DNA of 64,000 nt from Escherichia coli. GTDB taxonomy: Bacteria; Pseudomonadota; Gammaproteobacteria; Enterobacterales; Enterobacteriaceae. Both the position numbers and the translations under genes were made by a program. Shown here in pieces: positions 7,898 through 54,244 of the stretch. The stretch is taken from the NCBI RefSeq assembly GCF_044324785.1, contig NZ_CP172127.1. One strand, written 5' to 3'. Every line of letters starts with the position of its first letter. Position 1 is the stretch's first letter. Below the pieces are notes generated by a model. It did not search any database. It saw only the letters and a list, made by a program, of their open reading frames with translations, and was not told where the DNA came from.

Positions 7898-10800
7898 TTA
7901 TTTACGTACCCGATGTCGGTGCAGCCACATCAGCTTATACGCCGCCGGGATAATAAACAGCGACAGCAAAGGCGCGGTGATCATGCCGCCAATCATCGGC
8001 GCGGCAATCCGGCTCATCACCTCTGAACCTGCTCCCGTCCCCCACAGAATCGGCAGCAGACCGGCGATAATCACCGCCACCGTCATCGCTTTCGGGCGCA
8101 CGCGCAGGACCGCGCCGTGATATAACGCCTCATCCAGCTTCTGCTCACTGAATGTTTGCGGATTATTCAACGACGGCTCGGCCTCTATAGCGTGACGTAA
8201 ATACATCAGCATCACCACGCCAAATTCGGCGGCGACCCCGGCAAGGGCGATAAAGCCGGTGCCCGTTGCCACAGAAAGATGAAAGCCCATCCACCACAGC
8301 AACCAGATTCCGCCCACCAGCGCAAACGGTACGCTGCTGATAATCAGCAACGCTTCGCCCACCCGACGGAACGCCAGATACAACAGCACGAAGATGATCA
8401 TCAACGTCATCGGCACCATGAGTTTCAGCTTATGGTTGGCGCGCTCCAGTAGCTCGAACTGCCCGGAGAATGCCACGCTGGTACCCGGTTTTAACTGCAC
8501 TTTTTCAGCTATCGCTTTTTGCAGATCGTGAACCACCGACACCATGTCACGATCGCGGGCATCGATATAAATCCAGCTCGTCGGGCGCGCATTCTCGGTT
8601 TTCAGCATCGACGGTCCGGTAGAGACTTTAACGTCAGCCACGTCTGCCAGGGTGATTTGCTGCTTCATCGGCGTCAGAATCGGCAACTGGCGCAACGCCT
8701 GCGGACTATCGCGCCAGCTTTGCGGATAACGCAGATTAATTGGATAACGGGCAATCCCTTCCACCGTTTCGCCAACCATCGCCCCGCCCACCGCAGAAGT
8801 CACAAACAATTGCACATCTGCCACCGTCATACCGTAACGCGCGGCTTTTTCACGGTTAATCTCAACGTTGATATAGCGCCCACCTTCCAGACGCTCGGCA
8901 AGCGCAGAAGCTACGCCTGGCACCGTTCGCGCCACTTCTTCAATTTGCTCCGCCATCGCGTCGATATCCGCCAGCACAGTGCCGGAAACTTTAATGCCGA
9001 TGGGGCTTTTAATGCCAGTCGAGAGCATATCAATACGGTTACGAATTGGCGGCACCCACAGATTCGCCAGCCCCGGCAGCCGCACGGTGTTATCCAGTTC
9101 CTCGATGATTTTGTCCATCGTCATGCCAGGCCGCCACTGATCTTGTGGCTTAAGCTGGATAGTCGTTTCTACCATCTCCAGTGGAGCTGAATCGGTGGCG
9201 GTTTCCGCTTTCCCGGTTTTGCCAAATACCCGCGCCACTTCCGGTACGCTCATAATCAGCTTGTCGGTTTTTTGCAGCATGCTCGCCGCCTCTGCTGCGG
9301 AAATCCCCGGCAGCGTCGATGGCATATACAACAAGTCGCCTTCATTGATCTGCGGTAAAAATTCCCCGCCAACTTTATTGAGCGGCCAGAGAACCGTCAG
9401 CACCGAAAGCGCTGCCACCAACAGCGTGGTTTTCGGCCAGTGCAGTACTTTCAGCAACAGCGGATGATAAACACGAATCAAAAAGCGATTGAGCGGGTTA
9501 CTGCTTTCCGGCGGAATTTTGCCACGGATCCAGTAGCCCATCAGGATCGGGATCACTACGATCGCCAGTAGCGCCGCGCCCGCCATCGCATAGGTTTTGG
9601 TGAACGCCAGCGGGCCAAACAGACGACCTTCCTGCCCTTCCAGGGTGAAGATCGGGATAAACGACAGCGTGATAATCAGCAGACTGATAAACAGCGCCGG
9701 CCCCACTTCAACAGATGCATCGGTGATCACCTGCCAGCGCGTTTTATTATCCAGCGTGGCGTCAGGATGCTGGTGCTGCCACTCTTCCAGCCGTTTATGC
9801 GCATTCTCGATCATGACGATAGCGGCATCGACCATCGCCCCGACGGCAATCGCAATACCGCCCAGCGACATAATATTGGCGTTCAGTCCCTGAAAGTGCA
9901 TGACAATAAAAGCAATACACAACCCCAGCGGCAACGAAATAATCGCCACCAGCGCCGAGCGCACATGCCAGAGAAACAGCGCACAGACTACCGCCACCAC
10001 AATAAACTCTTCCAGCAACTTGCCGCTGAGGTTGTCGATGGCGCGGTCAATGAGCTGACTGCGATCGTATGTTGTAACTATCTCCACGCCTTCCGGCAGA
10101 CTGCTTTTCAGCGTTTCCAGTTTGTCCTTCACGGCGGCGATCACTTCACGGGCGTTTTTGCCGGAACGCAGGATCACCACCCCGCCCGCCACTTCGCCTT
10201 CGCCGTTCAGTTCGGCAATGCCCCGGCGCATCTCCGGGCCAACCTGGACCTTCGCAACATCACGCAGATAAACGGGCACGCCATTTTCACTGGCTTTTAA
10301 AACGATGTGATTAAAGTCGTCAAGCGTTTGCAGATAGCCGCTGGCGCGCACCATATATTCCGCTTCCGCCAGTTCGATCGACGAACCGCCCGCTTCCTGG
10401 TTTGAAGCATCCAGCGCGCTTTTTACTTCGGCGAGACTGATGCCATACTGCGCCAGGCGCTGAGGATCGATAACCACCTGATACTCTTTCACCACACCGC
10501 CCACCGACGCCACTTCCGCAACGTCAGGGATGGTTTTTAGCTCATATTTGAGAAACCAGTCCTGCAATGAGCGTAAATCGGCCAGATCGTGCTTACCGCT
10601 GCGATCCACCAGTGCATATTCATAGATCCAGCCAACACCCGTGGCATCTGGCCCCAGCTCGGCGCTGACTCCCGCAGGCAGCTTACCCTGTACCTGGTTG
10701 AGGTACTCCAGCACCCGCGAGCGCGCCCAGTATGGATCGGTGCCATCTTCGAAAATAACATACACATAAGAGTCGCCAAACTGCGAGAAACCACGCACAG

Positions 10801-16308: not shown

Positions 16309-17051
16309 TTAGTTAGTTCAAACTCAAAGAGTGATGTATCGCCTTCTGTTATTATTTATCAATAAAACAGGGAAGACCTTATTGGTCGTCTGAAATCGAA
16401 GGTTATTCATTTTCGGATATTTACGAGATATTTAGATATGCAATTTAATCAAATTCGTGTTTCTACCAATTGTAGAGCACAATGCTATTACTAAATTTTC
16501 ATCACTATAAAAGAATCGGCTATAATATAAAGCGCAGTCAGGCATCATTAATCTCTATATTATTCACACAATCTATTTATCAAGTGAATTTGATAAATTC
16601 CTAATTTAAAATATTCACTATTAAGCCAGCGTCTAACGACGTTAAGATGGCAATGTGCAGATCATGTTATCAGGGTGGGGCGGTAGCGTATATTCCTTAT
16701 ACAAACCATCATTCATTTCAATAATATTTATTGAGTTATTTATTATTGTGAATAAAAAGACATTACAAATATTGGTTTAACTTTGCATATCAGGTGTTTT
16801 TTTGTTACTCGATGTAATATACGAGCCTGTCCTTAATAACATCGTGAACCCGTCAGTTGAGTTTGTGATTATTTTGTTGACTCAACAGCCCCCCGTTTCT
16901 CTGAAGTAAAATCCCGGACAAAATTCTCACATAACCATGACACTTTTCTGATATTCCCCGGTAACGCCTGAAGCCGGCCCGCTTATCTCATTACCCGACA
17001 TGTTGTACATGCAATATGTGCGGATTATTATTCATTTTCACGGAGGTTGCT

Positions 17052-18953
17052 ATGTCAACCGGATTACGTTTCACACTGGAAGTGGACGGCCTGCCACCGG
17101 ACGCTTTTGCGGTGGTCTCCTTTCATCTCACCCAGTCACTCTCTTCACTTTTTTCCCTAGACCTTTCTCTGGTCAGTCAGCAGGTTCTCTCCCTTGAATT
17201 TGCGCAGGTGCTGGACAAAATGGCCTACCTGACGGTATGGCAGGGCGATGACGTACAGCGCCGGGTGAAAGGCGTGGTGACCTGGTTTGAACTCGGGGAG
17301 AACGACAAAAACCAGATGCTGTACAGCATGAAGGTGCGCCCGCCGCTGTGGCGGGCAGGACTGCGTCAGAACTTCCGTATCTTCCAGAACGAGGACATCA
17401 GAAGCATCCTCGGCACCATACTGCAGGAAAACGACGTCACGGAGTGGAGCCCGCTGTTCAGCGAGCCGCATCCTTCCCGTGAGTTTTGTGTCCAGTACGG
17501 TGAAACCGATTACGACTTTCTCTGCCGGATGGCAGCGGAGGAAGGCATCTTCTTCTATGAGGAGCACGCGCAGAAAAGTACCGACCAGAGTCTGGTGCTG
17601 TGCGACACGGTCCGCTATCTGCCGGAGTCCTTTGAAATCCCCTGGAACCCGAACACCCGTACCGAGGTGAGCACCCTCTGCATCAGCCAGTTCCGCTACA
17701 GCGCACAAATCCGTCCTTCCTCCGTGGTGACCAAAGACTACACCTTTAAACGCCCCGGCTGGGCCGGGCGTTTTGACCAGGAAGGCCAGCATCAGGATTA
17801 CCAGCGCACACAGTATGAAGTGTATGACTGGCCGGGGCGTTTCAAGAGCGCCCACGGGCAGAACTTTGCCCGCTGGCAGATGGACGGCTGGCGAAACAAC
17901 GCAGAAACCGCGCGGGGAATGAGCCGCTCGCCGGAGATATGGCCGGGACGGCGAATTGTGCTGACGGAGCATCCGCAGGCGAACCTGAACCGGGAATGGC
18001 AGGTGGTGGCGAGCGAACTGCACGGCGAACAGCCGCAGGCGGTGCCGGGACGGCGGGGCGCGGGGACGGCGCTGGAGAACCAGTTTGTGGTAATCCCGGC
18101 AGACCGGACGTGGCGGCCACAGCCGAAGCCAAAGCCGTCAGTGGACGGTCCACAGAGCGCCGTCGTGACGGGGCCTGCGGGAGAGGAAATCTTCTGCGAC
18201 GAGCATGGCCGGGTGCGGGTGAAATTCAACTGGGACCGCTATAACCCGGCCAACCAGGACAGCTCGTGCTGGATACGGGTGGCGCAGGCGTGGGCGGGGC
18301 CGGGATTTGGCAACCTGGCGATACCGCGCGTGGGTCAGGAGGTCATTGTGGACTTCCTCAACGGCGACCCAGACCAGCCCATCATCATGGGCCGCACCTA
18401 TCACCAGGAAAACCGCACCCCCGGCAGCCTGCCGGGAACGAAGACGCAGATGACCATCCGCTCCAAAACATATATGGGCAGCGGGTTTAACGAGCTGAAG
18501 TTTGACGATGCAACAGGGAAAGAACAGGTCTACATCCACGCGCAGAAGAACATGGATACCGAGGTGCTCAACGACCGTACCACCACCGTAAAACACGATC
18601 ACCGCGAAACCGTAAAAAATGACCAGACGGTCACGATCCAGGAAGGTAACCGCCTTCTTACGGTGGCAAAAGGCCACAAAATCACAGGCGTACTAAAAGG
18701 GTCCTTATCTGAGGATGTCTTTCAGGACAGAGGCACGATTGCCGGTTCAGTGCATGTTGACGCTGTAAACAATGGTGGCGAAGGCGACGGTATACAGGCT
18801 TATACGGCGATTAAGCAAATTATGCTGGCCGTGGAGGAAAGCAAAATTGCGCTGACGCCGGATGGCATTCAGCTACAGGTCGGGGAATCGACGGTAATCA
18901 GGCTGTCGAAGGATGGCATCACCATCGTGGGCAGTTCTGTTTTCATCAACTGA
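17052..18953 (+). CDS. vgrG: T6SS spike protein VgrG
   Basis: ATG at 17052, preceded by GGAGG at 17043. 633 aa with the classic VgrG gp27/gp5 core (...SCWIRVAQAWAGPGFGNLAIPRVGQEVIVDFLNGDPDQPIIMGRTYH...). Confidence 0.93.
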   Translation: MSTGLRFTLEVDGLPPDAFAVVSFHLTQSLSSLFSLDLSLVSQQVLSLEFAQVLDKMAYLTVWQGDDVQRRVKGVVTWFELGENDKNQMLYSMKVRPPLWRAGLRQNFRIFQNEDIRSILGTILQENDVTEWSPLFSEPHPSREFCVQYGETDYDFLCRMAAEEGIFFYEEHAQKSTDQSLVLCDTVRYLPESFEIPWNPNTRTEVSTLCISQFRYSAQIRPSSVVTKDYTFKRPGWAGRFDQEGQHQDYQRTQYEVYDWPGRFKSAHGQNFARWQMDGWRNNAETARGMSRSPEIWPGRRIVLTEHPQANLNREWQVVASELHGEQPQAVPGRRGAGTALENQFVVIPADRTWRPQPKPKPSVDGPQSAVVTGPAGEEIFCDEHGRVRVKFNWDRYNPANQDSSCWIRVAQAWAGPGFGNLAIPRVGQEVIVDFLNGDPDQPIIMGRTYHQENRTPGSLPGTKTQMTIRSKTYMGSGFNELKFDDATGKEQVYIHAQKNMDTEVLNDRTTTVKHDHRETVKNDQTVTIQEGNRLLTVAKGHKITGVLKGSLSEDVFQDRGTIAGSVHVDAVNNGGEGDGIQAYTAIKQIMLAVEESKIALTPDGIQLQVGESTVIRLSKDGITIVGSSVFIN

Positions 18954-18980: not shown

Positions 18981-19442
18981 ATGCAGTTCACTTTTAATGA
19001 AGGTCATATTCAGCTGCCATCGCAATGGCAGGATCAGTCGATGCAGGTCCTGGTGTCCACAGATAACAGTGGCATCAACCTGGTCATTACCCGCGAACCC
19101 GTTCCACAGGGAACCCTGACACCAGAACTGTACCAGGAAACGCTGGCGCTGTACCAGGGCAAACTTGATGGGTACACCGAACATGCCTGCCGGGAAATCA
19201 CTCTGGCAGAGGCCCCGGCCTGGCTGCTGGATTATTCCTGGAACGGTCCGGAAGATGAAGGGAATCAGGGGCGGATTAGCCAGATAGCCGTATTCCAGCG
19301 GCGTGGAGATACGCTGCTGACCTTCACTTTCAGCACCTCCTTATCCCTGAAGAACAGTCAAAAGACGATGCTGCTGGAGGTGATAAAGAGCTTCACCCCG
19401 TTGCCACCGGAGAATGACATCCAAAAGGACCAGCCGCGCTGA
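18981..19442 (+). CDS. DUF1795/DcrB-fold Eag-type effector chaperone
   Basis: 153 aa. The N-terminus MQFTFNEGHIQLPSQWQDQSMQV is typical of Eag/DUF1795 proteins, and the gene sits between vgrG and a prePAAR effector. Confidence 0.8.
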   Translation: MQFTFNEGHIQLPSQWQDQSMQVLVSTDNSGINLVITREPVPQGTLTPELYQETLALYQGKLDGYTEHACREITLAEAPAWLLDYSWNGPEDEGNQGRISQIAVFQRRGDTLLTFTFSTSLSLKNSQKTMLLEVIKSFTPLPPENDIQKDQPR

Positions 19443-19461: not shown

Positions 19462-22400
19462 ATGAGTGAAGGACCAGGCGGGCCACAGGGAGCGACCGCA
19501 GGCGGTACGCTGGCAATGCGAATGCTGTCACAGCAGGCGATGGTCGCCAGCCAGATGAAACGGGCAGCCAACGACAAAGCCATTGCACAGATGTTGGCAT
19601 CAAAAAAGTCTGGCCCCCCCGCCGCCAGGCTGGGCGATGAAATTCAGCACAAGAGTTTTTTGGGGGCGCTGGCAGGGGCCGTGCTGGGGGCGATAGTGAC
19701 CATCGCAGAAGGTTGCCTGATTATCGCCGCCTGTGCCACCGGCCCTTATGCGCTGGTTCTGGTGCCTGCGCTGATGTATGCCAGCTATAAGGCGAGTGAT
19801 TATGTGGAGGAGAAACAGAACCAGCTTGAATCCTGGATAAACAGCTTTTGTGACAAGGACGGGGCCATCAATACTGGTTCTAAAAATGTAAACATTAACG
19901 GAAAGCCCGCTGCCAGGGCCGCCGTCACACTTCCCCCTCCTCCCCTGACTGAAGCAATACCCTCTCCACCACAGGGGGAACCTTCATGGGGGGATATTGC
20001 CACTGACCTGCTTGAATCGGCAGCGGAAAAAGCAGTGCCACTGGCGAAGGCCTGGGGGAACGCTGTTATCACCCTGACGGACAGCAATGCCAGTTTTATG
20101 GATCGCTTATGTGCAGGCACATCGCTTCTGTTTCCCTACGGCCCGGTATTAATGGAGTTTGCCACCATGGTGGGCGGGCGTGGCGAAATCAAAAAAGACG
20201 TGGATTTCCCGGAAGCCGGTGAAGACACGGCGCTCTGCGACAAGGAGACTAAACCGCCGAGGATAGCCCAGGGCAGCAGCAACGTCTTCATCAACAATCA
20301 GCCTGCCGCGCGCAAGGGCGACAAACTGGAGTGCAGCGCGGCAATCGTGGAAGGTTCGCCGGACGTCTTTATTGGGGGTGAGCAGGTCACCTATCTGGAT
20401 ATCCAGCCGGAGTTCCCGCCGTGGCAGAGAATGATCCTGGGGGGAATAACGATAGCCAGCTATCTTCTGCCGCCAGCGGGACTGCTGGGAAAAATGAAGA
20501 ATCTGGCGAGACTCGGCAAACTGGGAAACCTGCTGGGGAAAAGCGGGAAGCTGCTGGGCGCAAAACTCGGCGCATTGCTGAGCAGAACAAAAAATGCCCT
20601 GAAAAATACGTATAACGTCCTGAAAAAGTTTATCAAAGATCCGGTTGACCCGGTAACCGGCGCGTACTGCGACGAACGTACCGACTTCACCCTGGGCCAG
20701 ACCCTCCCCCTCTCCTTCACCCGTTTCCACAGTTCTGTACTGCCACTGCATGGCCTGACGGGCGTGGGCTGGAGCGACTCCTGGAGCGAATACGCCTGGG
20801 TGCGTGAACAGGGAAACCGGGTGGATATCATCAGCCAGGGAGCCACGCTGTACTTTGCCTTCGACGGAGACAGTGATACGGCGGTTAACCCGTATCACGC
20901 CCAGTATATCCTGCGCCGCCGCGACGATTACCTGGAGCTGTTCGACCGTGATGCCCTGAGCAGCCGCTTCTTTTATGACGCCTTTCCGGGAATGCGCCTG
21001 CGCCACCAGGTGACCGGCGATACCAATGATGACCGCCTGGCACACAGCCCCGGTGACCGGATGTACATGCTGGGCGGAATGAGTGACACCGCCAGCAACC
21101 GCATCACGTTTGAGCGCGACAGTCAGTACCGGATCACGGGTGTCAGTCACACCGACGGGATCCGGCTTAAACTGACGTACCACGCCAGCGGCTACCTGAA
21201 AGCCATTCACCGCACGGATAACGGCATACAGACGCTGGCGACCTACGAACAGGACGAACGGGGACGGCTGACAGAAGCGGATGCGCGGCTGGACTACCAC
21301 CTGTTTTATGAGTACGACGATGCGGACCGGATCATCCGCTGGTCCGATAACGACCAGACGTGGAGCCGTTTCACCTACGATGCACAGGGCCGGTGCGTGA
21401 CCGTCACCGGGGCGGAAGGCTATTACAACGCCACGCTGGACTATGGTGACGGCTGCACTTCCGTGACGGACGGCAAGGGCATTCACCGTTATTACTATGA
21501 TCCTGACGGCAATATCCTGCGGGAAGACGCGCCGGACGGCAGTACCACCACGTATGAATGGGATGAATTCCATCACCTGCTGGCCCGCCACTCCCCTGCC
21601 GGACGGGTGGAGAAATTTGAATACAACGCCGTACACGGTCAGTTAAGCCGTTACACGGCGGCAGACGGCGCGGTGTGGCAGTACCGCTATGATGAGCGCG
21701 GCCTGCTCAGCAACATCACCGACCCTGCCGGGCAGACGTGGACACAGCAGTGTGATGAACGCGGCCTGCCGGTAAGTCTGGTGTCGCCACAGGGCGAAGA
21801 GACCCGGCTGGCGTACACGCCACAGGGGCTGCTGTCGGGGATATTCCGCCAGGATGAACGGCGTCTGGGCATAGAGTACGACCACCACAACCGGCCGGAA
21901 ACACTCACCGACGTGATGGGCCGTGAACACCACACCGAATACAGCGGTCACGACCTGCCGGTGAAGATGCGCGGCCCCGGCGGTCAGTCAGTGCGGTTAC
22001 AGTGGCAGCAGCACCATAAACTGAGTGGCCTTGAGCGGGCAGGAACCGGCGCGGAAGGATTCCGCTACGACCGCCACGGCAACCTGCTGGCGTACACGGA
22101 CGGTAACGGCGTTGTCTGGACAATGGAATACGGCCCGTTCGATTTGCCGGTGGCGCGAACGGACGGTGAAGGCCACCGCTGGCAGTACCGCTACGATAAA
22201 GACACGCTGCAACTGACAGAAGTCATCAATCCGCAGGGTGAGTCATACCGTTATATTCTCGACAACTGTGGCCGGGTGACGGAAGAGCGTGACTGGGGCG
22301 GCGTGGTCTGGCGTTACCGCTATGACGCCGATGGCCTGTGTACCGCCAGGGTTAACGGCCTGGAGGAAACTATCCTCTACAGCCGGGACGCCGCAGGCCG

Positions 22401-24324
22401 CCTGGCAGAAGTCATCACCCCGGAAGGCAAAACGCAGTATGCGTATGACAAATCCGGCAGGCTGACGGGTATCTTCAGCCCGGACGGCACATCACAGCGC
22501 ACCGGCTACGACGAACGCGGGCGGGTGAATGTCACCACTCAGGGCAGACGGGCCATTGAGTACCACCACCCCGATGAACACACCGTTATCCGCTGTATCC
22601 TGCCACCGGAAGATGAACGCGACAGACACCCCGGTGAATCCCTGCTGAAAACCACCTACCGCTACAACGCCGCCGGAGAACTGACGGAGGTTATCCTGCC
22701 GGGGGATGAGACGCTGACGTTCAGCCGTGATGAGGCAGGACGTGAAGTGCTCCGGCACAGTAACCGGGGTTTTGCCTGTGAACAGGGCTGGAATGCAGCC
22801 GGTCAGCTTACCAGCCAGCGCGCCGGATTTTTCCCGGCGGAAGCCACATGGGGCGGACTGCTCCCCTCACTGGTGCGGGAGTACCGTTACGACAGCGCGG
22901 GCAATGTGTCGGCTGTCACCAGCCGGGAAGACTACGGACGGGAAACACGGCGGGAGTACCGGCTGGACCGGAACGGCCAGGTCACAACGGTGACAGCCTC
23001 AGGCACCGGGCTGGGCTATGGCGAAGGCGACGAGACTTATGGCTATGACAGCTGCGGCTACCTGAAGGCGCAGTCTGCGGGCAGGCACCGGATAAGTGAA
23101 GAGACTGACCAGTATGCCGGAGGCCACCGGCTGAAACAGGCCGGAAACACGCAGTATGACTATGACGCCGCAGGCCGGATGGTCAGCCGCACCAGACACC
23201 GTGACGGCTACCGCCCGGAAACAGAGCGGTTCCGGTGGGACAGCCGGGACCAGCTGACCGGGTATTGCAGCGCACAGGGGGAGCAGTGGGAATACCGCCA
23301 CGACGCCAGCGGCAGGCGGACGGAAAAACGCTGCGACCGGAAGAAAATCCGTTTTACGTACCTGTGGGACGGCGACAATATTGCGGAAATCCGGGAATAC
23401 CGCGATGATAAACTGTACAGCGTACGGCACCTGGTGTTTAACGGCTTTGAGCTGGTAAGCCAGCAGTGCAGCCGGGTACGGCAGGCGCATCCGTCCGTGG
23501 CCCCGCAGTGGGTGACGCGAACGAATTATGCGGTGAGCGACCTGACAGGCCGCCCGCTGATGCTCTTTAACAGTGAAGGTAAAACCGTCTGGCGGCCGGG
23601 ACAGACCAGCCTGTGGGGGCTGGCACTCAGCCTGCCCGCAGACACCGGCTACCCGGACCCGCGCGGGGAACTGGACCCGGAAGCCCCCCCCGGCCTGCTG
23701 TATGCGGGACAGTGGCAGGATACGGAATCGGGGCTGTGCTATAACCGGTTCCGGTATTACGAGCCGGAAACCGGAATGTACCTGGTGAGTGATCCGCTGG
23801 GGTTGCAGGGAGGTGAGCAGACTTACCGGTATGTGCCTAATCCTTGTGGGTATGTTGATCCGCTGGGGCTGGCAAAAACCAGTATTATAAAATCTTCTAC
23901 AGGCAAAATCCCACAAGGGTTAACAAAAAGCGAATTTGAGATTTTTTCAAAAAAATTAAAGGATGTATTAGCCCGAGAGGGAATCTCGACAGAGAATGTG
24001 TTTGTACATGGCAGTAGAGCCAGAGGAGATGCTGTATCAGGTGTTTCAGATATTGATATAAAAGTGATCCTTAGTGATAAAGATTTTGGTGCCTTTGCAG
24101 CAAGACGTATTGCTGAGTCCTCAGGAAGGACTCGAAATTTAATCAGGAAGGCCGTTGCTAAAAATCAAAAAATAAATTCAAGAGGAATTTCTAAAACTTT
24201 TGAATCTACTGTATGGGATGAGGTTTTCACTACCTTACCAAAAGGTGAGTTTTCAAGCATTCAAGTTTCTGTTATGACCAAAACTTCACCATTCAACACT
24301 AATCCGAGTATTATATTACCATGA
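19462..24324 (+). CDS. prePAAR/PAAR-Rhs T6SS effector with C-terminal nucleotidyltransferase-like toxin domain
   Basis: 1620 codons. Features in order: prePAAR-like AARLGDEIQH (19621-19650), hydrophobic helices, PAAR motifs (GKPAARA; NQPAARKGD), numerous YD repeats, and the core end DPLGLQGGEQTYRYVPNPCGYVDPLGL (ends 23871). An AT-rich 150-codon CT follows, containing HGSRARGDAVSGVSDIDIKV. Confidence 0.93.
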   Translation: MSEGPGGPQGATAGGTLAMRMLSQQAMVASQMKRAANDKAIAQMLASKKSGPPAARLGDEIQHKSFLGALAGAVLGAIVTIAEGCLIIAACATGPYALVLVPALMYASYKASDYVEEKQNQLESWINSFCDKDGAINTGSKNVNINGKPAARAAVTLPPPPLTEAIPSPPQGEPSWGDIATDLLESAAEKAVPLAKAWGNAVITLTDSNASFMDRLCAGTSLLFPYGPVLMEFATMVGGRGEIKKDVDFPEAGEDTALCDKETKPPRIAQGSSNVFINNQPAARKGDKLECSAAIVEGSPDVFIGGEQVTYLDIQPEFPPWQRMILGGITIASYLLPPAGLLGKMKNLARLGKLGNLLGKSGKLLGAKLGALLSRTKNALKNTYNVLKKFIKDPVDPVTGAYCDERTDFTLGQTLPLSFTRFHSSVLPLHGLTGVGWSDSWSEYAWVREQGNRVDIISQGATLYFAFDGDSDTAVNPYHAQYILRRRDDYLELFDRDALSSRFFYDAFPGMRLRHQVTGDTNDDRLAHSPGDRMYMLGGMSDTASNRITFERDSQYRITGVSHTDGIRLKLTYHASGYLKAIHRTDNGIQTLATYEQDERGRLTEADARLDYHLFYEYDDADRIIRWSDNDQTWSRFTYDAQGRCVTVTGAEGYYNATLDYGDGCTSVTDGKGIHRYYYDPDGNILREDAPDGSTTTYEWDEFHHLLARHSPAGRVEKFEYNAVHGQLSRYTAADGAVWQYRYDERGLLSNITDPAGQTWTQQCDERGLPVSLVSPQGEETRLAYTPQGLLSGIFRQDERRLGIEYDHHNRPETLTDVMGREHHTEYSGHDLPVKMRGPGGQSVRLQWQQHHKLSGLERAGTGAEGFRYDRHGNLLAYTDGNGVVWTMEYGPFDLPVARTDGEGHRWQYRYDKDTLQLTEVINPQGESYRYILDNCGRVTEERDWGGVVWRYRYDADGLCTARVNGLEETILYSRDAAGRLAEVITPEGKTQYAYDKSGRLTGIFSPDGTSQRTGYDERGRVNVTTQGRRAIEYHHPDEHTVIRCILPPEDERDRHPGESLLKTTYRYNAAGELTEVILPGDETLTFSRDEAGREVLRHSNRGFACEQGWNAAGQLTSQRAGFFPAEATWGGLLPSLVREYRYDSAGNVSAVTSREDYGRETRREYRLDRNGQVTTVTASGTGLGYGEGDETYGYDSCGYLKAQSAGRHRISEETDQYAGGHRLKQAGNTQYDYDAAGRMVSRTRHRDGYRPETERFRWDSRDQLTGYCSAQGEQWEYRHDASGRRTEKRCDRKKIRFTYLWDGDNIAEIREYRDDKLYSVRHLVFNGFELVSQQCSRVRQAHPSVAPQWVTRTNYAVSDLTGRPLMLFNSEGKTVWRPGQTSLWGLALSLPADTGYPDPRGELDPEAPPGLLYAGQWQDTESGLCYNRFRYYEPETGMYLVSDPLGLQGGEQTYRYVPNPCGYVDPLGLAKTSIIKSSTGKIPQGLTKSEFEIFSKKLKDVLAREGISTENVFVHGSRARGDAVSGVSDIDIKVILSDKDFGAFAARRIAESSGRTRNLIRKAVAKNQKINSRGISKTFESTVWDEVFTTLPKGEFSSIQVSVMTKTSPFNTNPSIILP
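21559..23844 (+). repeat. rhs core direct repeat, copy A (within the full-length rhs)
   Basis: Aligns with 27298-29583 at a constant offset of 5739 nt. The first ~80 nt are diverged and the rest is near-identical by eye. Confidence 0.9.
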
Positions 24325-24671
24325 AGAAAAAAGATATTAGATTTGCAATATCCATTAACTCCAACTTAAGTAAGATAGAATTAATGGAAAAAATTAAAAA
24401 TATAATCCCAGGGCTTATTGAAATAACTTCCAGTGCATTAAGAGAAGAAAAAAACATGGTAGTTATTGAAGAAAATGATCTTTATGACCCTATAAAAGCA
24501 GAGGGAGCTGATGGATGGATGTATTATAAATTCATATTATCCATATTCCCATTAAAGGGAGTGGAAACAACATTAGAATATCAACGGGAATTATCTTTTC
24601 TTTTCTTAAAGAAAATAAAAGATGCGGGCCTGTTGGGTGAACTTATATGCGAGGATGATTTTCATGACTGA
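24321..24671 (+). CDS. Presumptive cognate immunity protein of the Rhs NTase-like CT
   Basis: 116-codon AT-rich ORF whose ATG overlaps the rhs stop (ATGA), the usual Rhs CT/immunity arrangement. I recognise no motif in it. Confidence 0.7.
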   Translation: MKKKDIRFAISINSNLSKIELMEKIKNIIPGLIEITSSALREEKNMVVIEENDLYDPIKAEGADGWMYYKFILSIFPLKGVETTLEYQRELSFLFLKKIKDAGLLGELICEDDFHD

Positions 24672-24730
24672 TGACCTCTACATATATCCTCAGTTCGTGG
24701 CTGGTATTACATGATCTGACAGGGAAAGAT

Positions 24731-24880
24731 CGTGGCGAAATCAAAAAAGACGTGGATTTCCCGGAAGCCGGTGAGGACACGGCGCTCTGCGACAAGGAGA
24801 ACAAACCACCGAGGATAGCCCAGGGCAGCAGCAACGTCTTCATCAACAATCAGCCTGCCGCACGCAAAGGGGACAAACTG
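24731..24880 (+). pseudogene. 150-bp fragment of an rhs PAAR region
   Basis: Matches 20179-20328 of the main rhs (RGEIKKDVDFPEAGEDTALCDKE[N/T]KPPRIAQGSSNVFINNQPAARKGDKL). It is truncated on both sides and abuts the ISEc1 left end. Confidence 0.85.
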
Positions 24881-26171
24881 CAGGGAAAGATCACGTAACG
24901 CTGCTTTTTTGTACTAAATAATTCGCATTTTATGTTTAAAAATTGAGATATTCCTCATTACCTAAAGCTGTTTTTTATTGCTTATACATGATCAAATACT
25001 CCTTACATAATTAAGGAGAACAAAATGGAACTTAAAAAATTGATGGAACATATTTCTGTTATCCCCGATTACAGACAAGCATGGAAAGTAGAACATAAAT
25101 TGTCAGATATTCTACTGTTGACTATTTGCGCCGTCATTTGTGGTGCAGAAGGCTGGGAAGATATAGAGGATTTTGGTGAAACACATCTCGATTTTTTGAA
25201 GCAATATGGTGATTTTGAAAATGGTATTCCTGTCCACGATACCATTGCCAGAGTTGTATCCTGTATCAGTCCTGCAAAATTTCACGAGTGCTTTATTAAC
25301 TGGATGCGAGATTGCCATACTTCAGATGATAAAGACGTTATTGCAATCGATGGAAAAACACTCCGGCATTCTTATGACAAGAGTCGCCGCAGGGGAGCGA
25401 TTCATGTCATTAGTGCGTTCTCAACAATGCACAGTCTGGTCATCGGACAGATCAGGACGGATGAGAAATCTAATGAGATTACAGCTATCCCAGAACTTCT
25501 TAACATGCTGGATATTAAAGGAAAAATCATCACAACTGATGCGATGGGTTGCCAGAAAGATATTGCAGAGAAGATACAAAAACAGGGCGGTGATTATTTA
25601 TTCGCTGTAAAAGGAAATCAGGGGCGGCTTAATAAAGCCTTTGAGGAAAAATTCCCACTGAAAGAATTAAATAATCCAGAGCATGATAGTTACGCAATTA
25701 GTGAAAAGAGTCACGGCAGAGAAGAAATCCGACTTCATATTGTTTGCGATGTCCCTGATGAACTTATTGATTTCACGTTTGAATGGAAAGGGCTGAAGAA
25801 ATTATGCATAGCAGTCTCCTTTCGCTCAATAATAGCAGAGCAAAAGAAAGAGCCAGAAATGACGGTCAGATATTATATCAGTTCTGCTGATTTAAACACA
25901 GAAAAGTTCGCCACAGCAATCCGAAACCACTGGCACGTGGAGAATAAGCTGCACTGGCGTCTGGATGTGGTAATGAATGAAGACGACTGCAAAATAAGAA
26001 GAGGAAATGCAGCAGAATTATTTTCAGGGATACGGCACATCGCTATTAATATTTTGACGAATGATAAGGTATTCAAGGCAGGGTTAAGACGTAAGATACG
26101 AAAAGCAGCTATGGACAGAAACTACATGGCGTCAGTCCTTGCGGGGAGCGGGCTTTCGTAATCTTTCCCTG
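24881..26171 (+). mobile_element. ISEc1 (H-repeat, ISAs1 family), copy 1
   Basis: Imperfect terminal inverted repeats: cagggaaagatcacgtaacg on the left, and ...cgtaatctttccctg on the right. The element encloses the H-repeat-associated transposase ORF. Confidence 0.88.
25025..26161 (+). CDS. ISAs1-family (H-repeat-associated, YhhI-like) transposase
   Basis: 378 aa, [37 protein letters not shown]..., recognisable as the E. coli Rhs-associated H-rpt protein. AAGGAG SD upstream. Confidence 0.9.
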
Positions 26172-26396
26172 GACATGACGATTATTGTTCGTTCAAATCC
26201 GAGTAAAGCCGCTATTCTTGAAGAATTTTTACATGGTACACAAGAGAAACTAGGAATAGCTGAAAAATTAGGACGTTATGGACTAGGGAGTGCAGAAACG
26301 CACGTTAAGGATTTCATGATAAGACACAAAAAAATGCTTGGGTTATCTGATGAGGATGTAGCAATACTCAAAATATTGAAAGACAAGGGGTTGTGA
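26172..26396 (+). pseudogene. C-terminal stub of an orphan polymorphic-toxin CT, truncated by ISEc1
   Basis: The open frame starts exactly at the IS right end (…DMTIIVRSNPSKAAILEEFLHGTQEKLG…KDKGL). Its stop overlaps the next ATG (TGATG), as in toxin/immunity pairs. Confidence 0.55.
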
Positions 26397-26683
26397 TGAA
26401 TATAATTCTGCCGATAAAAGATATATTTATTATTGCGGGAAACATAGTTTTTAGCGTTTTATACAATGAACATATTGAGTTCCCATGCCGCTGCCAATTA
26501 CTATCTTCAAATTCTGAAGTTATGCAAGAGTTATATATTGAAAAAGAGTTATTTATTAAACGCACTACAGAAAATGATTGTCGTGCTTTAGTGTTAAGAG
26601 GAACATTGGAATACTTATTTGATGAAATTATTGCTGGCGATTGTGCATTGGCCTTATTACAAAAAGAAATAAAAAAAGATTAA
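26396..26683 (+). CDS. Presumptive orphan immunity protein 2
   Basis: 95-codon AT-rich ORF overlapping the upstream stub's stop by 1 nt. No recognisable motif. Confidence 0.55.
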   Translation: MNIILPIKDIFIIAGNIVFSVLYNEHIEFPCRCQLLSSNSEVMQELYIEKELFIKRTTENDCRALVLRGTLEYLFDEIIAGDCALALLQKEIKKD

Positions 26684-26699
26684 TCCAATATGTAGAACT

Positions 26700-26905
26700 G
26701 GACAATACCCATCTTTTAACAATGAACTTCGTAATTTTTATCTTAGAAATAATGCTACATTATATGAGGTATATCATGAAGTAATTCATGCCAAGCAATT
26801 TGCGAAAATATTTCTATCGGAGGTGCTGATGCACCATCTAATATGAGACTTATGGATATAATGACACATACAACTCATCATAAATATTACAGGCCTTGGG
26901 AATGA
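26700..26905 (+). pseudogene. Decayed orphan toxin CT with HExxH (zinc-metallopeptidase-like) motif
   Basis: One frame reads ...NELRNFYLRNNATLYEVYHEVIHAKQFAKI... and stops at 26844. Another frame, open from 26780, continues ...GGADAPSNMRLMDIMTHTTHHKYYRPWE* to 26905. This is consistent with a 1-nt frameshift near the A-run at ~26804. There is no rhs core upstream. Confidence 0.6.
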
Positions 26906-27264
26906 TAAATAAAATAGTGAAAAAAATGTTGGTTTCATATAGCCCTAAGAAACCGGAGTCTAGGGGCGGGGATTTTGTTATTCCGTTGTTTTTTAATGAG
27001 AAAGTTTCTTTTTTTAGCATAAAAAGTGGCAAGCCAGTGCGATATGGTCTTATGGTATTTACAGGGAAAGTAATTACCATAGATGATATTCTTAGTAAAG
27101 TTCGTTTTCCTGATGTTATGAATGAGCAAAATATTCAACCGTTAATTGACTTTATTAATAACATTAGCGATTTTAAAATAGGGGATGTTATTGAAATTGA
27201 TGATAATGGTAAATTGAAAGTTGTGCCAAAATCAGCAGGACACCCTGTGAGTAAATTGCCATGA
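26902..27264 (+). CDS. Presumptive orphan immunity protein 3
   Basis: 120-codon ORF from the ATG at 26902, overlapping the stub stop as ATGA. AT-rich, with no recognisable motif. Confidence 0.55.
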   Translation: MINKIVKKMLVSYSPKKPESRGGDFVIPLFFNEKVSFFSIKSGKPVRYGLMVFTGKVITIDDILSKVRFPDVMNEQNIQPLIDFINNISDFKIGDVIEIDDNGKLKVVPKSAGHPVSKLP

Positions 27265-27297: not shown

Positions 27298-29583
27298 TGG
27301 GACGAATACCATCACCTGCTGGCGAGGCTGTCTCCGGCAGGACGGCTGGAAAAGTTTGACTATCATCTGACACTCGGTCAGTTAAGCCGTTACACGGCGG
27401 CAGACGGCGCGGAGTGGCAGTACCGCTATGATGAGCGCGGCCTGCTCAGCAACATCACCGACCCTGCCGGGCAGACGTGGACACAGCAGTGCGATGAACG
27501 CGGCCTGCCGGTGAGTCTGGTGTCGCCACAGGGCGAAGAGACCCGGCTGGCGTACACCGCTCAGGGGCTGCTGTCGGGGATATTCCGCCAGGATGAACGG
27601 CGTCTGGGCATAGAGTACGACCACCACAACCGGCCGGAAACACTCACCGACGTGATGGGCCGTGAACACCACACCGAATACAGCGGTCACGACCTGCCGG
27701 TGAAGATGCGCGGCCCCGGCGGTCAGTCAGTGCGCTTACAGTGGCAGCAGCACCATAAACTGAGCGGCATTGAACGTGCTGGAACCGGCGCGGAAGGATT
27801 TCGCTATGACCGCCACGGCAACCTGCTGGCCTGGACGGACGGCAACGGTGTTGACTGGACAATGGAATACGGCCCGTTTGATTTGCCGGTGGCGCGAACG
27901 GACGGTGAAGGCCACCGCTGGCAGTACCGCTACGATAAAGACACGCTGCAACTGACAGAAGTCATCAATCCGCAGGGCGAGTCATACCGTTATATTCTCG
28001 ACAACTGTGGGCGGGTGACGGAAGAGCATGACTGGGGCGGCGTGGTCTGGCGTTACCGCTATGACGCCGATGGTCTGTGTACCGCCAGGGTTAACGGCCT
28101 GGAGGAAACCATCCTCTACAGCCGGGACGCCGCAGGCCGCCTGGCAGAAGTCATCACCCCGGAAGGGAAAACGCAGTATGCGTATGACAAATCCGGCAGG
28201 CTGACGGGTATCTTCAGCCCGGACGGCACATCACAGCGCACCGGCTACGACGAACGCGGGCGGGTGAATGTCACCACTCAGGGCCGACGGGCCATTGAAT
28301 ACCACCACCCCGATGAACACACCGTCATCCGCTGTATCCTGCCACCGGAAGATGAACGCGACAGACACCCCGGTGAATCCCTGCTGAAAACCACCTACCG
28401 CTACAACGCCGCCGGAGAACTGACGGAGGTTATCCTGCCGGGGGATGAGACGCTGACGTTCAGCCGTGATGAGGCAGGACGTGAAGTGCTCCGGCACAGT
28501 AACCGGGGTTTTGCCTGTGAACAGGGCTGGAATGCAGCCGGTCAGCTTACCAGCCAGCGCGCCGGATTTTTCCCGGCGGAAGCCACATGGGGCGGACTGC
28601 TCCCCTCACTGGTGCGGGAGTACCGTTACGACAGCGCGGGCAATGTGTCGGCTGTCACCAGCCGGGAAGACTACGGACGGGAAACACGGCGGGAGTACCG
28701 GCTGGACCGGAACGGCCAGGTCACAACGGTGACAGCCTCAGGCACCGGGCTGGGCTATGGCGAAGGCGACGAGACTTATGGCTATGACAGCTGCGGCTAC
28801 CTGAAGGCGCAGTCTGCGGGCAGGCACCGGATAAGTGAAGAGACTGACCAGTATGCCGGAGGCCACCGGCTGAAACAGGCCGGAAACACGCAGTATGACT
28901 ATGACGCCGCAGGCCGGATGGTCAGCCGCACCAGACACCGTGACGGCTACCGCCCGGAAACAGAGCGGTTCCGGTGGGACAGCCGGGACCAGCTGACCGG
29001 GTATTGCAGCGCACAGGGGGAGCAGTGGGAATACCGCCACGACGCCAGCGGCAGGCGGACGGAAAAACGCTGCGACCGGAAGAAAATCCGTTTTACGTAC
29101 CTGTGGGACGGCGACAATATTGCGGAAATCCGGGAATACCGCGATGATAAACTGTACAGCGTACGGCACCTGGTGTTTAACGGCTTTGAGCTGGTAAGCC
29201 AGCAGTGCAGCCGGGTACGGCAGGCGCATCCGTCCGTGGCCCCGCAGTGGGTGACGCGAACGAATTATGCGGTGAGCGACCTGACAGGCCGCCCGCTGAT
29301 GCTCTTTAACAGTGAAGGTAAAACCGTCTGGCGGCCGGGACAGACCAGCCTGTGGGGGCTGGCACTCAGCCTGCCCGCAGACACCGACTACCCGGACCCG
29401 CGCGGGGAGCTGGACCCGGAAGCCGACCCCGGCCTGCTGTATGCAGGACAGTGGCAGGATACGGAATCAGGGCTGTGCTATAACCGGTTCCGGTACTACG
29501 AGCCGGAAACCGGAATGTACCTGGTGAGTGATCCGCTGGGGTTGCAGGGGGGTGAGCAGACTTACCGGTATGTGCCGAATCCT
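27298..29583 (+). repeat. rhs core direct repeat, copy B (orphan)
   Basis: See copy A. The offset is 5739 nt, and homology ends at the codon after the shared ...VPNP. Confidence 0.9.
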
Positions 29584-30051
29584 TTAAGATATAAAGATTT
29601 CTATGGGCTTAGTAAGAGTTCAATAATAACGAGAGGAAAGAATGCTGGTCATGGCTATGCAGCCAGCGTTACACCTGGAGGCAAAGGTACGGTGTTGGCT
29701 GGTCACGGAGGATCAAAATTTGGCGATAAAATGATTATACCAGAAGGCGTATCGATAACGATGCCGAGAGATGGTATTAAAATATCAGATATGACTGGAA
29801 AATTACTGGAATCTGGTAATGTGGATGATATAATTAAAGCTGCAAGTAATAATCCTCGTGTAGCTAGCGATCTTGAAGGTTGGGTTACTTATTTGCCCGG
29901 CACTGAAATCCCTGATTATATTTTAAAACCACCCACCAATCTTAACATACTGGAAAATTCAGTAACGGTGAACACTTCAACTTATTTATCTCAAATGGTA
30001 AATGCTGGTCAAGGTAATGTAATCTGGGCTGCATGCACCGAATTTTTTTAA
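27298..30051 (+). pseudogene. Orphan 5'-truncated rhs core with an intact alternative CT toxin domain
   Basis: The frame is open stop-to-stop from 27265 with no plausible start or N-terminal PAAR region. 27298-29583 parallels the main rhs core. It diverges after ...YRYVPNP into a distinct AT-rich 155-codon CT (LRYKDFYGLSKSSIITRGKNAGHGY...VIWAACTEFF). Confidence 0.85.
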
Positions 30052-30065
30052 CGCGGGGTAATCGT

Positions 30066-30548
30066 ATGTATTTTAAAGATGATACTGACTATACATATTT
30101 CCTTCCTAATGAATATTTTTTACACGGGGTGAAAAATGTGGGCTGGATAGACAGAGAACACCCCTTCACAAAAGGGATTAGTGACGCTGAATTTATTGAA
30201 AAGTTAAAAGCAATAATTCTAACAGAGAATGAAGCAACTTGTTTTTCAGTTAATAAAATAAGAGGATTTCACAAATGTAATTTTTGCAATAGTGAAATGA
30301 TAACAATAACCGATGGAAGAAAAAAAGGATACCTTGGCATGAGTGAAATATGGATTCCATCCATCCACCATAATGAGTATTACGCGTTTCCTTCATTAAT
30401 TTTCCATTATATAACATCTCACATGTATAGACCACCAGAGGACTTTATTGTATCTGTTTTAAACTTGAATTTAAGCGAGAGTTTTTGCGCTCAAAACATA
30501 TATGACAATAAAATTAAGGAATTAAAAATAGACTTCTGGTTTCGTTAA
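30066..30548 (+). CDS. Presumptive immunity protein of the orphan Rhs CT
   Basis: 160-codon AT-rich ORF from the ATG at 30066, 15 nt after the orphan rhs stop. It contains HKCNFCNSE. The annotated start at 30033 would overlap the toxin end and was not used. Confidence 0.6.
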   Translation: MYFKDDTDYTYFLPNEYFLHGVKNVGWIDREHPFTKGISDAEFIEKLKAIILTENEATCFSVNKIRGFHKCNFCNSEMITITDGRKKGYLGMSEIWIPSIHHNEYYAFPSLIFHYITSHMYRPPEDFIVSVLNLNLSESFCAQNIYDNKIKELKIDFWFR

Positions 30549-31023: not shown

Positions 31024-32315
31024 GTAGGAAAAGATCACGTAACGCTCCTTTTTTGTACTAAATAATTCGCATTTTATGTTTAAAAATTGAGATATTCCTC
31101 ATTACCTAAAGCTGTTTTTTATTGCTTACACATGATCAAATACTCCTTACATAATTAAGGATAACAAAATGTAACTTAAAAAATTGATGGAACATATTTC
31201 TATTATCCCCGATTACAGACAAGCCTGGAAAGTGGAACATAAATTATCGGATATTCTACTGTTGACTATTTGTGCCGTTATTTCGGGTGCAGAAGGTTGG
31301 GAAGATATAGAGGATTTTGGGGAAACACATCTCGATTTTTTAAAACAATATGGTGATTTTGAAAATGGTATTCCTGTTCACGATACCATTGCCAGAGTTG
31401 TATCCTGTATCAGCCCTGCAAAATTTCACGAGTGCTTTATTAACTGGATGCGAGATTGCCATACTTCAGATGATAAAGACGTCATCGCAATTGATGGAAA
31501 AACACTCCGGCATTCTTATGGCAAGAGTCGCCGCAGGGGAGCGATTCATGTCATTAGTGCGTTCTCAACAATGCACAGTCTGGTCATCGGACAGATCAGG
31601 ACGGATGAGAAATCCAATGAAATTACAGCTATCCCTGAACTTCTTAACATGCTGGATATTAAAGGAAAAATCATCACAACTGATGCAATGGGTTGCCAGA
31701 AAGATATTGCAGAGAAGATACAAAAACAGGGCGGTGATTATTTATTCGCTGTAAAAGGAAATCAGGGGCGGCTTAATAAAGCCTTTGAGGAAAAATTTCC
31801 ACTGAAAGAATTAAATAATCCAGAGCATGACAGTTACGCCATTAGTGAAAAGAGTCACGACAGAGAAGAAATCCGTCTTCATATTGTTTGCGATGTCCCT
31901 GATGAACTTATTGATTTCACGTTTGAATGGAAAGGACTGAAGAAATTATGCGTGGCAGTCTCCTTTCGGTCAATAATAGCAGAACAAAAGAAAGAGCCAG
32001 AAATGACGGTCAGATATTATATCAGTTCTGCTGATTTAACCGCAGAGAAGTTCGCCACAGCAATCCGAAACCACTGGCACGTGGAGAATAAGCTGCACTG
32101 GCGTCTGGACGTGGTAATGAATGAAGACGACTGCAAAATAAGAAGAGGAAATGCAGCAGAATTATTTTCAGGGATACGGCACATCGCTATTAATATTTTG
32201 ACGAATGATAAGGTATTCAAGGCAGGGTTAAGACGTAAGATGCGAAAAGCAGCCATGGACAGAAACTATCTCGCGTCAGTCCTTGCTGGGAGCGGGCTTT
32301 CGTAATCTTTCCCTG
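31024..32315 (+). mobile_element. ISEc1 (H-repeat, ISAs1 family), copy 2
   Basis: The left end taggaaaagatcacgtaacg has 2 mismatches to copy 1. The right end ...cgtaatctttccctg finishes at 32315. Same length class as copy 1. Confidence 0.85.
31187..32305 (+). CDS. ISAs1-family transposase, copy 2, N-terminally compromised
   Basis: The canonical start has ATG-TAA (31169-31174) where copy 1 has ATG-GAA, and the SD is AAGGAT rather than AAGGAG. The frame is otherwise intact from the internal ATG at 31187 ([15 protein letters not shown]...). Confidence 0.6.
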
Positions 32316-48719: not shown

Positions 48720-48728
48720 ATTCACCCC

Positions 48729-48757: not shown

Positions 48758-48783
48758 GTCATAACACTGTGTTACCTGGCTAA

Positions 48784-54239: not shown

Positions 54240-54244
54240 GGGAT

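Follow-up and report, generated by a model that had tools for sequence, protein, structure and literature searches.

A predicted Rhs toxin of Escherichia coli with an MNT-like nucleotidyltransferase domain and a cognate immunity gene

What does an Rhs protein of Escherichia coli deliver into a neighbouring cell when its C-terminal tip carries the short signature of a nucleotidyltransferase? The question is raised by a stretch of 64,000 nucleotides from contig NZ_CP172127.1 (assembly GCF_044324785.1), called the window below. Here an intact PAAR-Rhs reading frame of 1620 amino acids (19462-24324, plus strand) ends in a C-terminal domain (CT) of 150 residues, which is followed by a small overlapping gene. 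In our assessment this is very probably a toxin of the nucleotidyltransferase (NTase) fold delivered by Rhs, together with its cognate immunity gene. The toxin-immunity pair is of a known polymorphic kind; the novel part is the toxin family, which is similar to the minimal nucleotidyltransferases (MNT) and for which we found no description. The CT and the positions used in the argument are the following.

23872-24324, plus strand: C-terminal toxin domain (Rhs residues 1471-1620 and the stop codon), a predicted MNT-like NTase of the Pol-beta fold.
23908-23919, plus strand: I-P-Q-G motif (CT residues 13-16), start of the toxin cassette in all scaffolds.
24010-24015, plus strand: G47-S48, the nucleotide-binding loop of NTases (GSRAxG); each residue is found in 152 of 154 family sequences.
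24049-24057, plus strand: D60-I-D62, the catalytic metal-binding DxD; both aspartates are found in 154 of 154 family sequences.
24262-24264, plus strand: Q131, at the strand position where NTases hold their third carboxylate; only D or Q occurs in the family.

The CT contains VFVHGSRARGDAVSGVSDIDIKV, with G-S at 24010-24015 and D-I-D at 24049-24057, and its NTase motif HGSRARGDAVSGVSDIDI lies where the first-pass annotation, made from the DNA before any search, had placed it. Both parts of that signature are confirmed in position. The hydrophobic residue that was supposed to precede G-S is not there: the residue is a histidine in this protein, and Q or H across the toxin family. The loose pattern G[GS]-x9-13-D-h-[DE]-h occurs a single time in the six-frame translation of the entire window.

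According to Pfam, the isolated CT matches NTP_transf_2 (PF01909) with an E-value of 1.8e-6 and 28.7 bits, versus a gathering cutoff of 21. Inside the whole Rhs protein the score is 23.9 bits, and the match spans CT residues 27-71 only. At E <= 1 the Pfam scan of the CT returns NTP_transf_2, Polbeta, one spurious match and nothing else. The AlphaFold2 model of the CT, obtained from a 16-sequence alignment, has a pLDDT of 92.2 (about 91 from residue 11) and a pTM of 0.85. Comparing this model with the PDB using Foldseek gives nucleotidyltransferases only, including CdnD, CdnC and HalB, and all the matches are weak (best E-value 4.7e-3, TM-score at most 0.49). The NTase fold that had been proposed from the motif is therefore upheld by the profile search, which is above the cutoff, and by structure matches that are weak but all of the same kind. 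The family profile aligns GSRAxG...SDID with the same motif of HI0073 and of MNT structures; the resemblance to MNT proteins pointed out earlier is thus real, but it describes a structural neighbourhood and not membership of that family.

Among about 155 aligned family sequences, conservation is at least 95% for G47, S48, R49 and S133 and at least 89% for G52, A54 and F72, followed by S59, F141 and P145 (88-91%) and A50 (81%). Close to the start of the domain P14, Q15 and G16 are present in 137, 130 and 140 of about 142 sequences, and P-Q-G in more than 90%. The two halves of the site are separated as GS-x11-DxD in the E. coli CT and by x10 in most family members; alignment column 58 is filled in 25 of about 153 sequences (GSx10DxD is the spacing of the MntA signature, PMC7641770). 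Column 131 is D in 89 representatives and Q in 49, and the E. coli CT belongs to the latter. No second alignment column changes along with column 131, i.e. we found no compensating switch for D131Q.

The model also allows a comparison with HI0073. Column 131 presumably corresponds to the D of its V-D-L strand; the profile alignment itself stops at chain residue 70. From the HI0073 sequence and the strand order in the AlphaFold2 model, column 131 would be the structural equivalent of the third carboxylate. In the CT model four helices separate the DxD strand (61-67) from the long strand that comes next (130-136), while HI0073 has a single helix ahead of the V-D-L strand. Because of this difference, the toxin family probably has some 40 additional, helical residues inserted between the DxD and third-carboxylate strands. 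The last 80 residues of the CT show no match to known families in Pfam, NCBIfam, PADLOC and PDB searches. The isoelectric point (pI) of the toxin domains has a median of 9.4, and that of the E. coli CT is 10.05.

Is the domain found on other proteins, and does it behave as a toxin there? A word-indexed search of 5.8 billion proteins found four close CT homologs, and 18 after a profile step. A full hidden Markov model scan of 1.84 billion cluster representatives gave 254 matches at E <= 1e-3, of which 37 reach E <= 1e-10, and puts the share of the family among protein clusters at about 1e-7. The domain ends at most five residues from the C-terminus in 111 of 129 proteins. The scaffolds were surveyed by Pfam scans of 37 long family members, of which six have an eCIS_core domain, four RHS repeats and three DUF4280 (PAAR-like). 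Further scaffolds are of the CdiA type (TPS, Fil_haemagg, PT-VENN) or contain PT-HINT, LysM or SH3, and one homolog is located directly behind hcp, vgrG, a DUF2169 gene and a PAAR-like gene. This distinct family nearly always forms the very C-terminal end of Rhs, CdiA, eCIS-core, PAAR-like or PT-HINT proteins, and it is therefore a polymorphic-toxin cassette. A scan of genome representatives detected a single fragment, in Pectobacterium polonicum, and the toxin-immunity module was not found in a search of the plasmid collection.

The first-pass annotation was unable to assign the CT to any characterised toxin family of Rhs proteins or of type VI secretion systems (T6SS); this agrees with the literature. 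In the searchable part of it, which leaves out subscription-only papers, the family is not described as a toxin of the T6SS, of contact-dependent inhibition (CDI) or of the extracellular contractile injection systems (eCIS). ExoY.st is the sole entry under nucleotidyltransferase in a 2026 survey of Salmonella T6SS effectors, and neither the polymorphic-toxin screen of Nachmias nor a review of nucleic-acid toxins mentions such a domain. The 2012 catalogue of polymorphic toxins by Zhang et al. contains NTases of the RelA/SpoT type only (PMC3482391).

The gene behind the toxin is the second element of the pair.

24321-24671, plus strand: predicted cognate immunity gene, 116 amino acids, pI 4.98, with an ATGA overlap with the Rhs stop codon (translational coupling).

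A reading frame of 108-124 amino acids follows the toxin directly in 10 out of 10 distinct homolog loci, commonly with a 4-nt overlap. This conserved synteny and the ATGA overlap support the earlier expectation that the 116-residue protein is the immunity protein. Eight of the partner proteins align as one family, all of them acidic (pI 4.2-5.0), and the family alignment has an invariant tyrosine, Y69. Using hhalign, the E. coli immunity profile matches the partner in a T6SS cargo locus with a probability of 98.5 and an E-value of 3.7e-15, and the partner of a distant D131-type toxin weakly, with an E-value of 5.9e-4. The immunity protein has no significant match in Pfam, NCBIfam, PADLOC, PHROGs or the PDB sequences, and its AlphaFold2 model is weak (pLDDT 57.9). 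As had also been read from the sequence at the outset, the HEPN motif Rx4-6H is absent, H115 being the sole histidine.

A divergent branch of the toxin family has another candidate immunity protein family, about 165 amino acids long and encoded between the toxin and an exonuclease that is described below.

Locus L017, 499-996: partner gene of about 165 amino acids.
Locus L018, 1807-2301: partner gene of about 165 amino acids.
Locus L029, 3481-3975: partner gene of about 165 amino acids.
Locus L030, 1238-1747: partner gene of about 165 amino acids.
Locus L051, 37-534: partner gene of about 165 amino acids.

No homology between the two immunity families was detected by hhalign (E-value 0.12). 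They have similar acidic tails, ...ICEDDFHD and ...IFEDDYHD, a likeness without statistical support, and this shared tail may be the element that blocks the toxin in both.

Other genes accompany the pair in some of the homologous loci. In a Peptococcaceae locus (L009:1126-1716) a metallophosphoesterase-like gene, with weak Metallophos and PdeM matches, starts 189 nt past the immunity gene; in this single case it could be a modification-reversing enzyme or a mere neighbour. In another locus (L011:1662-3699) the NTase toxin-immunity pair shares a toxin island with two adjacent genes, for an ADP-ribosyltransferase toxin and for an ADP-ribosylglycohydrolase, and the ADP-ribosylglycohydrolase may be an enzymatic immunity that reverses the modification. 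SymE-like toxin genes are found on the opposite strand within NTase-carrying Rhs arrays (L004:690-1151, L007:2798-2932 and 8528-8899, L008:10078-10218).

How would the toxin leave the producing cell? The genes upstream of the CT in the window are as follows.

17016-18953, plus strand: vgrG, encoding the spike protein of the T6SS, carrier of the PAAR-Rhs effector (Pfam Phage_GPD 3.8e-75, Gp5_trimer_C, Phage_base_V).
18981-19442, plus strand: DcrB/DUF1795-family gene, the Eag-type chaperone expected for prePAAR effectors (Pfam DcrB 6.1e-28).
19462-23871, plus strand: Rhs delivery scaffold with prePAAR, PAAR, DUF6531 and an RHS-repeat shell, ending in DPLGL-x17-DPLGL.

The order vgrG, DcrB-family gene, PAAR-Rhs gene is the standard layout of class I prePAAR Rhs effectors, and all the features of this class are present, i.e. 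prePAAR, PAAR, RHS shell, DPxGL motif, upstream DcrB/DUF1795 gene and VgrG. The Pfam matches of the scaffold are RHS_repeat (4e-76), PAAR_motif (6.5e-16), DUF6531 (7.5e-13) and prePAAR_I (1.2e-4), the last slightly under its gathering cutoff with 22.8 bits versus 25. The counterpart of the vgrG gene in E. coli strain N3 is annotated as VgrG. By analogy with the class I effectors, the DcrB-family protein would serve as the Eag chaperone. The two DPLGL copies are at residues 1444-1448 and 1466-1470; the second ends at nt 23871, as first reported, but the spacer is 17 residues long and not 18. The GC content is 0.603 in the Rhs core and falls to 0.361 over the CT (the final 150 codons) and 0.308 in the downstream reading frame, in line with the AT-rich switch to a domain at residues 1471-1620 that had been described for the 1620-residue frame.

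What the enzyme acts on can be approached through its relatives, since in some of them a third gene follows the immunity gene.

Locus L007 (Pectobacterium), 6748-7317: DEDDh exonuclease gene.
Locus L008 (Pectobacterium), 6748-7317: DEDDh exonuclease gene.
Locus L014 (metagenomic), 1795-2358: DEDDh exonuclease gene.
Locus L015 (metagenomic), 1459-2016: DEDDh exonuclease gene.
Loci L017-L096: further DEDDh exonuclease genes.

In the first four loci the gene encodes 185-189 amino acids and has 4-11 nt in common with the end of the immunity gene, and the copies are about 70% identical to one another. The protein has a full-length but sub-threshold match to Pfam RNase_T. Its profile matches the PDB entry 7t2s ("3'-5' exonuclease") with an E-value of 1.5e-31 and the PADLOC model PDLC00753 ("Effector - Exonuclease") with an E-value of about 1e-43. 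We take PDLC00753 to be a model from cyclic oligonucleotide-based antiphage signalling systems (CBASS), solely because its accession adjoins those of the PADLOC CBASS cyclase models. The DEDDh residues D13, E15, D106, H165 and D170 are kept in all 80 metagenomic homologs that have the column, and all the toxin-linked copies keep the five catalytic residues.

The linkage was also examined in the reciprocal direction, in the 51 exonuclease loci for which 1 kb or more of upstream sequence exists. Seven of these have an NTase toxin upstream on the same strand, and three further loci show a partial or convergent linkage. As the toxin family is only about 1e-7 of protein clusters, chance adjacency is negligible. 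The exonuclease gene is thus common on its own and has joined the toxin module more than once. The linked toxins are of the Q131 type in 11 out of 12 cases, compared with 36% of the family, and the E. coli CT is also of this type. Judged from the gene order, the exonuclease neighbourhood suggests a new lead on the substrate of the toxin.

The NTase fold, the GS/DxD site, the behaviour as a cassette, the toxin-immunity synteny and the linkage to the exonuclease are all observed, and toxicity, the acceptor and both modes of protection are what we infer. After delivery, autoproteolysis behind the DPLGL motif would free the CT from the Rhs shell, as expected from Rhs biology, and the freed CT would act in the cytoplasm of the recipient. 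Using the GS loop and the DxD metal site, it would transfer a nucleoside monophosphate (NMP) from an NTP to the 3'-OH of a nucleic acid. The likeliest acceptor would be the 3' end of tRNA or of another RNA, where the addition would block function in the way of MenT, an NTase toxin unrelated to the CT. The producer would be protected by the acidic 116-residue protein, which may bind and block the basic toxin. In many relatives, though not at the E. coli locus, the exonuclease could protect at a second level, removing the added nucleotides enzymatically.

This reading, an NMP-transfer toxin directed at a 3'-OH, neutralised by a binding protein and in relatives also by an exonuclease, has in our estimate a probability of about 0.5, and for the acceptor as a nucleic-acid 3'-OH, taken separately, the odds are even or slightly worse. 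The linkage to a DEDDh exonuclease is what favours nucleotide addition to a 3'-OH, most likely of tRNA or other RNA, over AMPylation of a protein. The first-pass annotation had left RNA, protein and nucleotide targets side by side; the exonuclease neighbourhoods narrow this towards the 3'-OH of a nucleic acid or nucleotide. A precedent is MenT3, which adds cytidines to the 3' ends of tRNA-Ser; the products are handled by 3'-trimming enzymes, and overexpression of PcnA counters MenT3 toxicity (PMC11541572).

Several observations weigh against this proposal. The third carboxylate expected of Pol-beta NTases is replaced by Q at position 131 in the E. coli CT, which could mean a changed or weakened chemistry. 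Only about 135 residues of the CT are structured, no RNA-binding module can be recognised in it, and 20% of the toxin domains in the family are acidic. MntA, the closest characterised structural relative, AMPylates a protein tyrosine and not RNA (PMC7641770). No exonuclease is found at the locus in the window, so the substrate is deduced from relatives that are 45-66% identical. Most exonuclease homologs have unrelated neighbours (TetR, GGDEF-EAL, archaeal TFIIB, lectin), and the exonuclease is for this reason not dedicated to the toxin. As for the delivery competence of the strain, no T6SS core genes are present inside the 64-kb window.

The distribution of the module in E. coli bears on whether it is still in use. 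Among 5426 complete E. coli genomes the complete CT is found in one, strain N3, which is 98.5% identical to the window over the Rhs island between cusS and nfrB. In N3 the Rhs gene (L001:4594-9453) has genuine frameshifts and runs into a stop after 77 codons, whereas the copy in the window (19462-24324) is intact; RefSeq labels the N3 CT as a separate "nucleotidyltransferase domain-containing protein". A further 138 of the 5426 genomes, including O121 and O103 Shiga toxin-producing E. coli, contain only nt 24107-24671 of the window at 95-99% identity. This part comprises the immunity gene and the CT from residue 79 on, and so lacks the catalytic motifs. It is an orphan behind a different Rhs tip in the two genomes that were examined (L002 and L003, 7001-7565), and the orphan immunity frame is intact in the O121 strain RM8352 and frameshifted in AH01. 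Such orphan immunity is what usually results from the replacement of one Rhs tip by another, and strains with immunity only are left behind. Immunity without the toxin in 138 of 5426 genomes would fit a past or continuing exposure of natural populations to the toxin.

Four other accounts of the CT have to be weighed against a 3'-OH-directed toxin. In one, AMP or another NMP would be attached to a Tyr, Ser or Thr of an essential protein of the recipient, and the immunity protein would block the site or act as a decoy. MntA, with GSx10DxD and Mg2+, polyadenylylates Tyr104 of HepT (PMC7641770), the CT is as minimal as the MNTs and has no substrate-recognition domain, and Y69 is invariant in the immunity family. 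We nevertheless consider a protein target unlikely, as a DEDDh exonuclease that recurs with intact catalytic residues is not expected to strip a nucleotide from a protein side chain, there is no HEPN-like partner, and the NCBIfam MntA model scores 16 bits with a cutoff of 60. In a second account the toxin would be a synthase that links NTPs to form an oligonucleotide, linear or cyclic, or a different nucleotide product, acting by NTP depletion or through a toxic or signalling molecule; in the producer, the linked exonuclease would degrade this product. This would be consistent with the match of the linked exonuclease to PDLC00753, whose tie to CBASS follows from the accession numbering, with the weak matches of the CT core to CBASS cyclase models and to the CdnD, CdnC and HalB structures, and with Tas1 as a precedent for a nucleotide-synthesising T6SS toxin (PMC11925235). 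However, the cyclase matches are limited to the GS...DxD core (18 bits versus a cutoff of 200), and the CT is less than half the size of the CBASS cyclases (CD-NTases) and lacks their C-terminal acceptor-binding domain, so a synthase is in our view distinctly unlikely. A special form of it, to which we attach very little weight, is that the CT makes a nucleotide or oligonucleotide in the victim, like a CD-NTase or HalB, that poisons the cell or triggers the victim's own suicide effectors, while the CBASS-type exonuclease of the producer destroys the product. If true, this would be an interbacterial weapon that works through a counterfeit immune signal.

The toxin could also nucleotidylylate a small molecule, adenylylating a hydroxyl of an essential metabolite or envelope precursor as the aminoglycoside nucleotidyltransferases do. 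The C-terminal substrate-binding domain of those enzymes is missing, the likeness is confined to the shared core, and the exonuclease linkage would be left unexplained; we give this hardly any credence. Finally, the CT might be a decaying, non-toxic remnant in an array of Rhs orphans, without function in this strain. The frameshift in N3, the one complete E. coli genome in which the CT is whole, would agree with decay, and so would the 138 genomes with a truncated CT only, the Q at the third carboxylate and an island rich in insertion sequence (IS) elements and fragments. But in the window the 1620-residue frame is intact with a complete delivery architecture, the catalytic GS and DxD motifs are preserved, Q131 recurs as a conserved state of the family (49 representatives) and is not a private mutation, and the immunity frame is intact and coupled. 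We therefore see only a small chance that the CT is a remnant.

Downstream, the module is bordered by two further features.

24671-24898, plus strand: PAAR-domain fragment at the downstream edge of the toxin/immunity module (Pfam PAAR_motif 1.3e-7; annotated as partial PAAR in N3).
25025-26161, plus strand: ISAs1-family transposase (H-repeat) interrupting the orphan array (NCBIfam transpos_ISAs1 4.8e-125; Pfam DDE_Tnp_1).

According to cross-matches between the window and N3, nt 24731-24880 are about 94-95% identical to nt 20179-20328 of the window, which belong to the Rhs gene; the PAAR fragment is what an earlier Rhs rearrangement left of a displaced 5' region. A second ISAs1-family transposase gene (31184-32305) is about 96% identical to the one at 25025-26161, and the pair brackets an orphan section. 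Within it, 26139-27264 contains small AT-rich reading frames of 85, 96 and 122 amino acids without a family match. They are probably orphan toxin-immunity debris, because the N3 annotation puts a zincin-like metallopeptidase toxin fragment there. An N-terminally truncated second Rhs fragment (27511-30051) has the tip "putative adhesin Stv" (PF21527) and is followed by a DUF7919 protein (30033-30548), and this tip and the DUF7919 protein are probably another orphan toxin-immunity pair. Further away, lambdoid prophage tail genes unrelated to the toxin locus occupy 45318-57830 (minus strand) and beyond, among them a tail fibre of 1135 amino acids, the tip attachment protein J of 1137 and a tape measure protein of 853.

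The toxins of the Rhs, CDI and eCIS systems have been a main source of new enzymology, such as deaminase base editors, (p)ppApp synthesis and RNA ADP-ribosylation. We found no description of an MNT-like NTase as a secreted antibacterial toxin, and the family comprises 254 clusters in at least four delivery systems. If the extension of RNA 3' ends is true, a MenT-type mechanism would move from intracellular toxin-antitoxin systems into interbacterial warfare, and the defence would have two layers, an immunity protein that binds and an exonuclease that repairs the damage. To our knowledge the role of the CBASS accessory exonuclease is unclear; as the exonuclease found here is apparently of the same family as in CBASS operons, the toxin system could help to explain it. 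For NTase catalysis, the conserved replacement of D by Q at the third-carboxylate site poses a well-defined question.

How does the CT compare with the NTase systems that are already known? It was assigned to none of the MNT, MenT/AbiEii, CD-NTase and RelA/SpoT homologue (RSH) families, because in each case a defining feature that was tested is absent. The MNT antitoxins (MntA, HI0073; PDB 1no5, 8xeh, 5yep) have the GSRAxG...SDID core in common with the CT, and both are minimal in size and belong to Pfam NTP_transf_2; most of the CT family also has the GSx10DxD spacing of the MNTs (x11 in the E. coli CT). However, MNT proteins are the antitoxins of HEPN-MNT type VII systems, whereas the CT is a predicted toxin on a secretion scaffold, and the probable insertion of about 40 residues, the conserved SPF[ND]xGP tail and the N-terminal PQG motif belong to the CT family and not to the MNTs. 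The NCBIfam model MntA_antitoxin gives 16.2 bits, versus a cutoff of 60. A HEPN partner with Rx4HxY was found on neither side, since the downstream frame has no Rx4-6H and no HEPN/DUF86 match and the upstream neighbour is the Rhs shell.

For the CD-NTases, the NCBIfam model CBASS_cyclase_b scores 18.3 bits, with a cutoff of 200, and the PADLOC cyclase matches of the CT have E-values of 7e-5 or higher and cover the core only. In CBASS operons with an accessory exonuclease, a CD-NTase is paired with the same DEDDh family (PDLC00753, 7t2s), where the CBASS identity follows from the accession only. Those operons serve signalling in phage defence, while the CT module is predicted to be a secreted toxin with its immunity protein.

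CccR of Yersinia pseudotuberculosis is a Fic-domain protein, with a fold unrelated to NTases. It is delivered by the T6SS and puts AMP onto FtsZ, a protein target (PMC9755527, PMC11925235). Tas1 represents the sole earlier T6SS toxin class of the wider NTase superfamily that we found in the searchable literature (PMC3482391, PMC11925235). It has the RSH subclass of the fold and is a (p)ppApp synthetase that transfers pyrophosphate, whereas NMP transfer is proposed for the CT; the RelA/SpoT toxins (Tas1, toxSAS) were rejected, as the CT has no RelA_SpoT match at E <= 1.

MenT and AbiEii (DUF1814) are likewise toxins of the NTase fold. Membership was rejected, with no match in the Pfam scan of the CT at E <= 1, and the CT is about half their size. 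Its predicted neutraliser is a small acidic protein unrelated to those systems. The addition to tRNA 3' ends by MenT3, countered by trimming, is the very outcome that we propose for the CT (PMC11541572), but MenT and AbiEii act within the producer, while the CT would be delivered from one cell to another.

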